11,930 bases of DNA from a virus (lineage: Duplodnaviria > Heunggongvirae > Uroviricota > Caudoviricetes). Numbering within the stretch: the stretch's first letter is position 1; every line of letters begins with the position of its first letter. The notes below the pieces were generated by a model. It was not told the origin of the DNA. It made no database searches and was given only the letters and a program-made list of their open reading frames with translations. Location of the stretch: the IMG/VR virus record IMGVR_UViG_2548876944_000002; one strand, given 5' to 3'. The position numbers and the translations under genes were made by a program. This document shows, in pieces, positions 2,977-6,174 of this stretch.

Positions 2977-3372
2977 TCACATTTCATAGGTAATGACATA
3001 AGTCAGATCGGCTGAACTCCACAGGCCCGCATCATCGTCGCGCCGGTAGTCATAGCCACTGGCCACCATACTGGTGATCAAATCTGACAGTGCCGGGATA
3101 TCGCTCATCACCGGATAAATCCGGGACTCCATCCACGCATCCAGCTCTGAATCCGGCACCTGAGCAGGCAGGAAAACTTCAATATGCAGCTCCGCCTGCC
3201 AGGTATCGCTGTCCAGCTCTTCGCCCGTGTATTCAGCGCCGGTGAGATAAACGGCAATTGCCGGAAAATCCGCCTCATCAAAAACAGCAGGGCGACCATC
3301 AAAAAGCGTCGCCCCGGTGTTATGCTTCTCCAGTGCATCCAGTACGGCTGCACGGATATCCGTATGTTTCAT
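2977..3372 (-). CDS. U: Tail terminator protein gpU (131 aa)
   Basis: ORF track 2977..3372, [43 protein letters not shown]...; recognised as lambda gpU. Start overlaps the Z stop in ATGA (plus-strand tcat at 3369-3372). Confidence 0.94.
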
Positions 3373-4323: not shown

Positions 4324-4719
4324 CTATTGCATTCTGGCCAGGCCACGTTCCGTCATTTCGGCTGCCACACCGGCAGAGACACGAAACGCCGTTCCCGGCA
4401 GCACAAATGCCACAGGTTCATCCCGCGTGGCGTGAAGTGCATCGGTATGCAGCGTCACCAGTGCCACGACCGTGACCAGAGCAGCCGTATCAGTCACGGT
4501 ATCCGGCTGCACTGATACCACCTCATTTTCATGTCCGGTCAGCGCATTTTCCGAGTTGACAGATGTATCCTGACCGGCAGCCTCATCCGTGTCATCAAGC
4601 TCCTCTTCCAGCTCTGCCACACGGAGCGCCAGTTCTTCTTTCGTCCCCGTCAGGCTGACATCACGGTTCAGTTGTTCACCCAGCGAACGGAGACGGGCAA
4701 TCAGTTCATCTTTCGTCAT
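4324..4719 (-). CDS. FI: DNA packaging accessory protein gpFI (131 aa here)
   Basis: The track ORF 4324..4758 is an upstream extension. The lambda-matching start is MTKDELIARLRSLGEQLNRDVSLTGTKEELALRVAEL at 4719, preceded by GGAGG (minus strand ...tgtggaggagttcATG). The C-terminal third matches lambda FI; the central linker appears to differ from lambda and the ORF is one codon shorter than I expect. Confidence 0.88.
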   Translation of the reverse strand: MTKDELIARLRSLGEQLNRDVSLTGTKEELALRVAELEEELDDTDEAAGQDTSVNSENALTGHENEVVSVQPDTVTDTAALVTVVALVTLHTDALHATRDEPVAFVLPGTAFRVSAGVAAEMTERGLARMQ

Positions 4720-4740: not shown

Positions 4741-4758
4741 ATGGCCCCGAAGGGCCAT
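4741..4758 (-). other. Stem-loop immediately 3' of the E stop codon: 7-bp perfect stem with a UUCG tetraloop on the mRNA
   Basis: Plus strand atggccc-cgaa-gggccat at 4741-4758; the transcribed strand reads AUGGCCC-UUCG-GGGCCAU. It lies in the 41-nt E-FI intergenic gap, directly upstream of the FI Shine-Dalgarno. Confidence 0.6.
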
Positions 4759-4760
4759 GA

Positions 4761-5786
4761 TTACGCCAGTTGTACGGACACGAACTCATCAGGGTCAGCC
4801 AGCAGCATCAGCGGTGCTGACTGAATCATGGTGAACTCACGCGCCGGATCGCCGGTGGTCACCCAGTTTTTCGGGTAACGAGCAGAGGCGTTAATGCCTT
4901 CGCGCTGTGCGTCCGCATCCTGAATACAGCCATAGGTGCGCAGACCGCGTGCCTGAGTGTTCCCCAGCACCATCGTGTTGTCCGGCAGGAAGTTCTTTTT
5001 GACGCCGTTTTCCACGTACTGTCCGGAATACACGACGATGGCCACATCGCCATACATCCCCTTGTAGGACACCGCTTTGCCCAGGTCTTTTACCGCTGTC
5101 TCCAGCTCGGAATGAGAGCCGCGACGGGTATCCAGCTTCTCCCTGACGGCCTTGAAGGAACGGAACAGCGCCCAGCCTTTCGGATCAAACACGATGATAT
5201 TCACCACGCCGCTGGCGTTCAGCGCGTAGGCTTCGATATCGTCGGTCGGGTCATACGTGGACTTGTCACGCTTGCTCCACTCCGTGCCGCCGGACTGCGT
5301 GATGTTATTCGCCGCACTGCGGCCCATATCCACCTCAACCGGATCGAAGGCTTCACCGGTCATGGTGTATTTGCCCCTGAGCACGGCAGAAACGGCCTGC
5401 ATCTCTTCGACCTGGGCAATGGCCAGCTCCTCGTCACGCATGTTCTGCATGATGATGCGACGGCGGCGGTAAGCCGGGTCCGCCAGATTCTGCGGATCTT
5501 CATCAGGCATTCGGCGCAGGGTCATCTGCGGATTCACCTCATGCTTCGGCTTGACATATCCCGGCGTAAATTCAGAGGTGGAGCCGCCACGGGAGCGGAT
5601 AACTTCACCGGAAACAATCGGCGAAACGTACAGCGCCATGTTTACCAGTCCCGGAATTTGTGAGAGATAGACTTTCTCCGTGGTGAAGGGATAGCTCTCA
5701 CGGAAAAAGAGACGCAGAAACAGCGGATCAAACTTAAATTTCTGCTCATTTGCCGCCAGCAGCTGGGCGGTTGTGTACATTGACAT
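4761..5786 (-). CDS. E: Major capsid protein gpE (341 aa)
   Basis: The track ORF 4761..5813 is an upstream extension. The lambda-matching start is MSMYTTAQLLAANEQKFKFDPLFLRLFFRESYPFTTEKVYLSQIPG at 5786 (plus-strand cat 5784-5786). Recognised as lambda gpE, with a few substitutions relative to my recollection. Confidence 0.95.
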   Translation of the reverse strand: MSMYTTAQLLAANEQKFKFDPLFLRLFFRESYPFTTEKVYLSQIPGLVNMALYVSPIVSGEVIRSRGGSTSEFTPGYVKPKHEVNPQMTLRRMPDEDPQNLADPAYRRRRIIMQNMRDEELAIAQVEEMQAVSAVLRGKYTMTGEAFDPVEVDMGRSAANNITQSGGTEWSKRDKSTYDPTDDIEAYALNASGVVNIIVFDPKGWALFRSFKAVREKLDTRRGSHSELETAVKDLGKAVSYKGMYGDVAIVVYSGQYVENGVKKNFLPDNTMVLGNTQARGLRTYGCIQDADAQREGINASARYPKNWVTTGDPAREFTMIQSAPLMLLADPDEFVSVQLA

Positions 5787-5799
5787 AAAAAAATCCCGT

Positions 5800-5824
5800 A
5801 AAAAAAGCCGCACAGGCGGCCTTT
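5800..5824 (-). terminator. Intrinsic-terminator-like hairpin plus U7 tract in the D-E intergenic region (mRNA sense)
   Basis: Transcribed strand reads AAAG-GCCGC-CUGU-GCGGC-UUUUUUU, then ACGGGAUUUUUUU-AUG (E start). A GC-rich 5-bp core stem, extendable to ~9 bp with A-U pairs and one G-U, is followed by 7 U. Plus-strand core gccgcacaggcggc at 5807-5820, A-run at 5800-5806. Confidence 0.5.
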
Positions 5825-5841
5825 AGTGATGAAGGGTCAGG

Positions 5842-6174
5842 TTAAACGATGCTGATTGCTGTTCCGGCAAACGCGGTCCGTTTTTTCGTCTCGTCGCTGG
5901 CAGCCTCCGGCCAGAGCACATCCTCATAACGGAACGTGCCGGACTTGTAGAACGTCAGCGTGGTGCTGGTCTGGTCAGCAGCAACAGCAAGAATGCCAAC
6001 AGCAGCACCATCGGTGGTGCCATCCCACGCAACCAGCTTACGGGTGGAGGTGTCCGGCATCAGCGGGGTCATTGCAGGCGCTTTCGCACTCAATCCGCCG
6101 GGCGCGGTTGCCGTATGTGCCGGGTCACTGCCGCCCAGCGGCTGGTAATGAGTAAAGGTTTCTTTGCTCGTCAT
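5842..6174 (-). CDS. D: Head decoration protein gpD (110 aa)
   Basis: The track ORF 5842..6180 begins [14 protein letters not shown]...; the lambda-matching start is the second ATG ([12 protein letters not shown]..., plus-strand cat at 6172-6174). The 3' two-thirds ([63 protein letters not shown]) match lambda gpD. Confidence 0.9.

Follow-up and report, generated by a model that had tools for sequence, protein, structure and literature searches.

A conserved predicted Rho-independent terminator at the D-E head-gene junction of a lambda-type late operon

The junction between the head genes D and E of the late operon analysed here carries, on the strand of the late mRNA, a short GC-rich hairpin followed immediately by a run of seven uridines, which by its form is predicted to be a canonical Rho-independent terminator, and purifying selection acts on its sense-strand RNA structure and on the U-run. 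As a predicted terminator the element has been described before. All physiological roles considered below are ones that we infer; the one that we put first, tentatively and with somewhat less than even confidence, is that of a terminator overridden by Q, whose hairpin acts as a barrier to mRNA decay and which, as a fail-safe, also halts unmodified polymerase.

The window, by which we mean the whole analysed stretch of 11,930 nucleotides, encodes on its minus strand a lambda-type late operon, as the original prediction had recognized, and is 98% identical to phages lambda and 434 and to Stx1a phages; around the D-E site the identity to lambda, 434, DE3 and a set of Stx1a-converting phages is 98-99%. 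The genes on either side of the site are annotated in those phages as D (head decoration) and E (major capsid), and the translations are concordant. All features described here lie on the minus strand unless stated otherwise. Gene D encodes a head decoration protein of 110 aa (5842..6174; translation and homology to lambda D) and ends with the stop codon UAA at 5844-5842. The ORF caller begins D two codons early (MFM...). Gene E, which encodes the major capsid protein of 341 aa, occupies 4761..5786 with its AUG at 5786-5784, and its identity is supported by translation, by annotation and by the presence of Pfam family PF03864 in homologues.

The spacer between the two genes is 55 nt long, is the sole sizeable non-coding gap within the head-gene block, and reads on the mRNA strand, together with the start codon, CCUGACCCUUCAUCACU-AAAG-GCCGC-CUGU-GCGGC-UUUUUUU-AC-GGGA-UUUUUUU-AUG. 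It opens with a variable, poorly conserved stretch (5825..5841), which keeps the hairpin 17-21 nt clear of the ribosome terminating on D, the distance from the D stop in the window being 17 nt to the extended stem and 21 nt to the core stem. The tetranucleotide AAAG (5821..5824) is the 5' extension of the stem and pairs, in the predicted fold, with the first four U of the U-run; the sequence and the fold both define the core stem, with its 5' arm GCCGC (5816..5820), the loop CUGU (5812..5815) and the 3' arm GCGGC (5807..5811). Immediately 3' of the stem follows the first U7 (5800..5806), the terminator tail, with a tail score of 4.73. Two nucleotides (AC) past the U-run lies GGGA (5794..5797), the Shine-Dalgarno sequence of E, an RBS being annotated at the homologous place in phage 434, and a second U7 (5787..5793) fills the distance between it and the AUG. 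An N-terminally extended E, starting from an in-frame GUG at 5811-5813 (350 aa, 4761-5813), was rejected as an ORF-calling artefact, because this GUG begins with the last two loop bases, which are not conserved (CUGC in N15), and ends on the base that opens the 3' arm. Of 5,426 complete E. coli genomes, 3,136 (58%) contain the D-E junction (window 5740-5900), in up to 5 copies each and at 4,441 places altogether. EHEC-type genomes have it too, O26 and Stx1a phages being examples; in the RefSeq (PGAP) annotations of E. coli the spacer is without any feature.

A hairpin with an adjoining U7 between D and E had been proposed from the sequence with exact coordinates and description, and the suggested extension of its stem is confirmed by folding. 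The 25-nt element forms a 9-bp stem with a 4-nt loop at -11.8 kcal/mol (z = -2.6; 2 of 200 shuffles equal this value), the five G-C pairs of the core stem giving -7.7 kcal/mol and the A-U extension bringing the energy to the full figure, and folding of the whole 55-nt spacer (5787-5841), suggested at the outset as a check, yielded -14.5 kcal/mol (z = -2.0). Both strands of the 11.9-kb window were then scored with a function of the d'Aubenton-Carafa type, which combines the hairpin energy per nucleotide with a position-weighted U-tail. On this scale, which is approximate, as the energies were taken from modern parameters, the D-E site has d = 22.2, the highest value in the window on either strand, which was not reached when the whole window was shuffled 100 times with its dinucleotides preserved (maximum 15.4, mean per-shuffle maximum -3.3). 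Sites with d > 0 number six, five of them independent and one nested in the D-E element, and all are located on the mRNA strand, compared with 0.42 expected for both strands.

The proposed intrinsic-terminator form is borne out by this top score and by a GC stem, a short loop and an adjoining U7 on the mRNA strand. The element has the stem of at least about 5 bp with a loop of 3-8 nt that defines an intrinsic terminator (GCCGC/GCGGC, CUGU), a U-tract within the usual range of about 7-9 nt and located 0-2 nt from the stem (U7, 5806-5800), and a suitable position, on the same strand as D and E and past the D stop, with room behind the ribosome. A standard terminator scan omits the site, which is a scanner artefact, as the stem is extended into the U-run and too few U are left for the tail; a cruder scan that used energy only did not resolve canonical terminators from other hairpins and was discarded. 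On the opposite strand the tail of the element is CUUUAGUG and the score is poor, and a bidirectional terminator was rejected, since antisense d > 0 was found in only 3 of 14 loci and is not conserved. A search of the whole window against Rfam 15 at E <= 1 returned no match, generic terminators not being modelled by Rfam. Another hairpin-plus-U site with d > 0 is found on the minus strand at 7437-7416, inside C and 47 nt past the stop of B, with a U-rich tail from 7418. Further sites with d > 0 lie in coding sequence of the same strand, with tails starting at 3284 (inside U) and at 1617 (inside the T/H region); the site in U is also present in the lambda-like locus L024 and in L045 (E protein 61% identical).

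Homologous elements have been annotated in several relatives. In N15 (AF064539, 5980-6004) the element at the same junction is labelled 'putative rho-indep. transcription terminator', and in phage 434 (OL657226, 6100-6120), where the sequence is identical to the window copy, in HK225 (JQ086371, 5938-5958), and in mEp237 and HK629 it is annotated as a rho-independent terminator. Relative to the window, the copies of N15 and HK225 have one other base in the loop and A-U in place of G.U at the stem base. These annotations are predictions and not experiments, and the elements they describe have no structural difference from the window element. The classic lambda record J02459 has no feature at the D-E junction. 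In the literature that we searched, this site is not the subject of any experiment, be it on RNA 3' ends, on half-life or on termination in vitro, and PMC5737525 contains no per-gene RNA data.

About 200 loci were gathered by E-protein homology from genome contigs and viral contigs; a first scan of the viral contigs returned near-identical lambda-like loci only, which served for the analysis of polymorphism, and the scan was rerun from a divergent sequence. The loci yielded 72 unique junction sequences of 103 nt, of which 69 have the element and three (L042, L045 and L047) are without the U-run. In the lambda/N15 clade, which comprises loci with E proteins about 67-99% identical, the hairpin and the U-run form a conserved island within a rapidly diverging spacer. 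Among the 69 variants there are six versions of the stem, all fully paired, and the first U-run has 6-9 residues in every one and is never shorter; the loops take 26 forms of 3-4 nt, and the upstream spacers take 41, those of lambda and N15 being set apart by a 12-nt indel. U-run and Shine-Dalgarno sequence are separated by 1-3 nt in all variants, including those in which the Shine-Dalgarno sequence itself differs (GGGA vs GAGGA). When 11 diverse loci of the clade were scanned, the D-E site was in all of them the single consistent sense-strand terminator in a 4-kb region, positioned about 20 nt upstream of the E AUG (L038 reads -29).

The substitutions observed in the core stem are exclusively C to U and result in G.U wobbles (L080, L092, L035/L062): the 5' arm GCCGC is nearly invariant, with C to U changes that give U.G pairs, and the sole variant of the 3' arm is GUGGC, which again pairs as G.U. 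Such substitutions keep the pairing in the sense-strand RNA only, as the other strand would acquire A.C mismatches. The outer pairs of the stem covary between A-U, G.U and G-C. When 43 variants of the element were aligned with MAFFT, 93.8% of the cells were paired, vs 43-72% for partners shifted by 1-3 columns; the covariation is modest, the core stem being nearly invariant. The four rows that break the pairing belong to one sub-lineage (L145-L150), which has another stem, CCGCGC/GCGCGG, at this same site, in a shifted register and again followed by U7. The wobbles, the free loop, the covarying outer pairs and the replaced stem that keeps its U7 therefore point to selection on RNA structure and not on DNA sequence. 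Judged by these comparisons, selection acts on the stem pairing and on the U-run, but not on the loop, the upstream spacer or the second U-run.

The second U7 had been regarded initially as part of the element, and this view has to be given up. The run is present in only 18 of the 69 variants (lambda-like genomes and one Erwinia prophage) and is absent from N15, HK225 and Perceval. Most relatives, including Perceval, which is 90% identical to the window in this region, have GGGAAAAAUCUAUG or a similar sequence instead, and among the other spacers between the Shine-Dalgarno sequence and the AUG we found AAAAAUCU, AAACAUCU, AAUAAUUU and similar ones, always rich in A/U. From this comparison the second U7 is a lineage-specific version of an A/U-rich Shine-Dalgarno-AUG spacer, outside the conserved terminator. 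The lengths of both T-runs vary among near-identical prophages (loci L072, L076, L091, L095, L099, L124, L136 and L184), from 6 to 9 in the first (5800-5806) and from 6 to 8 in the second (5787-5793), and both look like slippage hot spots. A change in the length of the second run alters the spacing between the Shine-Dalgarno sequence and the AUG of E.

Lambda-type D-E junctions with E proteins 95-99% identical to the query were also encountered in assemblies of unrelated organisms, on contigs that are short and often of low coverage; the organisms include Chromatium, Kitasatospora, Paenibacillus, Bradyrhizobium, Akkermansia, Prevotella and Bacillus thuringiensis (loci L008-L023, L026, L041, L046, L048, L051-L055, L058, L059 and L063; protein P0001), and they are almost certainly contamination with lambda DNA.

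The three loci without the U-run (L042, L045 and L047), in which E is about 60% identical, have an unrelated D-E hairpin about 40-70 nt before the E start, with no usable U-tract and with d < 0. In L045 this hairpin is UCAGGCCACC-AU-GGUGGCCUGA, and the stems of L042 and L045 are related by compensatory changes; in L042 a terminator-grade site is located after E instead. In the Pseudoalteromonas relatives (about 45% identical) the D-E hairpin is absent, and in the lambda/N15 clade it is never found without its U-run.

A companion hairpin is located on the other side of E, in the spacer between E and FI (AUGGCCC-UUCG-GGGCCAU, 4741..4758; d = 9.7 in the terminator scan). It contains the extra-stable C(UUCG)G tetraloop motif and is followed by a weak U-rich tail (4740-4731). 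A stable GC-rich hairpin is found at the E-FI junction of every relative examined, with stems and loops that differ, and its U-tract is often useless, with d < 0 in N15, L148, L151, L038 and L039. Among the intergenic terminator-like sites of the window, those at D-E and E-FI score best; they flank the same gene, and E thus stands between two conserved hairpins. The common denominator across lineages is one hairpin following D and another following E, and terminator-grade U-tracts are clade-specific. Retention of a hairpin independently of termination is seen at E-FI and at the D-E junction of the relatives with E about 60% identical, but not at the D-E junction of the lambda/N15 clade.

[quoted passage not shown] The window includes neither Q nor pR', and it is by homology to lambda that Q would be expected to read through the D-E site. 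In a polymerase without Q, the GC stem would fold in the exit channel over the rU7:dA hybrid, with release predicted at about 5800-5803. During lytic growth, Q-loaded polymerase would prevent the folding of the exit-channel hairpin and read through, allowing E and the tail genes to be made. Once transcribed in this way, the D-E hairpin would fold in the free mRNA and, together with the hairpin after E, bracket the E cistron. The most likely selected role would be post-transcriptional, with the hairpin blocking 3'-to-5' exonucleases and protecting the upstream D message once the 26-kb transcript has been cut; fail-safe termination of unmodified polymerase would be the second role. The U-run, which abuts the Shine-Dalgarno sequence of E, would in addition be part of an unstructured, U-rich ribosome-loading region of this gene.

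We favour the dual role because hairpins are kept at both flanks of E even in relatives that have lost termination capacity, and because the lambda/N15 clade keeps all terminator features. Several observations weigh against the stabilizing part of it. In the lambda/N15 clade the U-run is never lost, and the D-E element thus gives no direct sign of termination-independent selection. The virion needs roughly as much D as E, and favouring D has no obvious stoichiometric rationale. The core stem, with only five G-C pairs, would be a modest barrier to exonucleases. Besides, Sampson et al. reportedly found in 1988 (PNAS 85:5439) that differences in the yield of late proteins result mainly from translation initiation and not from mRNA level, which would argue against a large effect of stability.

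If the post-transcriptional part is dropped altogether, the element would be purely a fail-safe barrier to polymerase without Q, which arrives by read-through of tR' or by spurious initiation in the prophage. We consider this explanation doubtful, although it accounts well for the conservation of all terminator features, including the U-run, in 69 of 69 junction variants, and the mRNA strand, which holds every one of the six sites with d > 0 (0.42 expected for both strands), looks like that of an operon studded with sense-strand stops, passable for antiterminated polymerase only. It leaves unexplained, however, why hairpins devoid of a usable U-tract are kept at E-FI and at the D-E junction of the relatives with E about 60% identical. 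By an estimate based on the lambda map, roughly 10 kb also separate the site from pR', a distance that few unmodified polymerases should cover, and we know of no harm caused by stray expression of E. A barrier of this kind has been proposed for P22-like phages (PMC8022706), and internal terminators are described as insulators in other antiterminated mobile elements (PMC11658703, PMC8191782).

The element could alternatively be a partial attenuator in lytic growth, at which, as at E-FI, some of the Q-modified polymerases stop, so that transcript abundance is graded along the operon. The location of the two best intergenic terminator-like sites of the window on both sides of E is in keeping with such a role, and partial termination is one of two options considered for phage L (PMC8022706); inefficient terminators that balance expression are described in T7 and in Pseudomonas phages (PMC9163698). 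We find this unlikely, as E, the most abundant protein of the virion, and all the tail genes are encoded downstream, and attenuation at this place would be counter-productive.

Quite unlikely in our opinion is a further possibility, according to which the terminator shape is incidental and the whole belongs to the translation-initiation region of E, with the U-run acting as a U-rich, S1-binding enhancer and the hairpin insulating this region from pairing with the D coding sequence. U-rich leaders enhance translation, and the U-run keeps its distance of 1-3 nt to the Shine-Dalgarno sequence in all variants, even where the latter differs, and is followed by a Shine-Dalgarno-AUG spacer that is always A/U-rich. 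However, modulation of E translation by the hairpin, one of the roles suggested at the outset, finds no support in the predicted accessibility of the Shine-Dalgarno-AUG region, which is 0.59 in the wild type vs 0.52-0.58 in hairpin mutants or the deletion, and thus nearly unchanged, and neither the invariant GC stem nor the hairpin after E, with no comparably placed U-run, would be explained. For the U-run itself, the fixed distance of 1-3 nt leaves room for a role as a U-rich enhancer, which it may have.

A neutral relic, either the leftover terminator of a moron-like acquisition of D or a DNA 'linker' for module recombination, is very unlikely. Terminators flank morons in lambdoid late operons, and the element is indeed an island of identity within a divergent spacer. 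Yet a moron cassette would have its own promoter upstream of D, and the promoter scan near the D start was empty, with only about 9 nt separating Nu3 from D; the substitutions that preserve pairing in the sense-strand RNA, and the pattern of conservation in general, speak against a relic.

One more class of site has been discussed in the literature. Yin et al. 2022 (PMC9388147) hypothesised 'Q-dependent' terminators, composed of a hairpin, a spacer fitted to the lengthened exit channel, whose length is unstated, and a U-tract of 7-9 nt. The lambda-type layout (window 5787-5820) corresponds to this order, with the hairpin, 13 nt (U7 + ACGGGA), and the second U7, which ends at the E start codon and 20 nt from the base of the hairpin. 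If the site belonged to this class, the exit channel lengthened by the Q nozzle would cause termination, a fraction of the Q-loaded polymerases would stop just before E, and this would be the first natural example of the class; we regard it as scarcely credible, because the second run is not conserved among the relatives that keep the hairpin and because termination at the E start would be costly.

Other candidates at or near the junction were considered and rejected. An sRNA released from the 3' end of D would need a promoter, and the scan found no promoter-like site inside D. HnrS, an sRNA from prophage late genes (PMC13502914), is encoded at another locus, being 99% restricted to EHEC/EPEC vs the presence of the junction in 58% of complete E. 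coli genomes. An antisense promoter was suggested by TTGACA on the plus strand (5780-5785, the complement of the E start region), which has no acceptable -10 and was not called in the scan.

Returning to the preferred explanation, a terminator overridden by Q whose hairpin delays decay, the D-E site is a test case for the role of intrinsic terminators inside processively antiterminated late operons of phages. As the site is intergenic, separate mutations in its stem, its loop or its U-run would leave all proteins unaltered, and the bracketing of E by two hairpins provides a concrete post-transcriptional hypothesis.

GC-rich intercistronic hairpins, such as the REP elements at malE-malF and the hairpins of the puf operon, can shield the upstream message from 3' exonucleases. 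The window resembles these systems in having stable hairpins of the same kind, one after each of the two most abundant head-protein genes. They differ from the D-E site in that they have no terminator-grade U-tract, and in that their effect on decay has been measured, whereas here it is predicted. The lambda terminator tR' is similar to the D-E site in its hairpin followed by a U-tract of 7-9 nt, in its location on the pR' transcript and in the expected override by Q (PMC9388147, PMC4914094), but it is a promoter-proximal regulatory switch, whereas the D-E site is located about 10 kb downstream, between structural genes. The P22-like phage L also has a predicted intrinsic terminator near the capsid genes, where its procapsid module ends, inside an antiterminated late operon with a single promoter (PMC8022706). 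Its authors stated in 2020 that the 'roles are not known' of such an intra-operon terminator, and offered as options partial termination and the blocking of transcription that is not antiterminated (PMC8022706); however, the coat module of phage L is of the unrelated P22 type, and its terminator follows the major capsid gene and does not precede it. In T7 a terminator is likewise situated amid the late structural genes and must be partially read through (cited in PMC9163698), but T7 uses its own RNA polymerase with no processive antiterminator, and its terminator follows the capsid gene, whereas that of the lambda-type operon precedes it.
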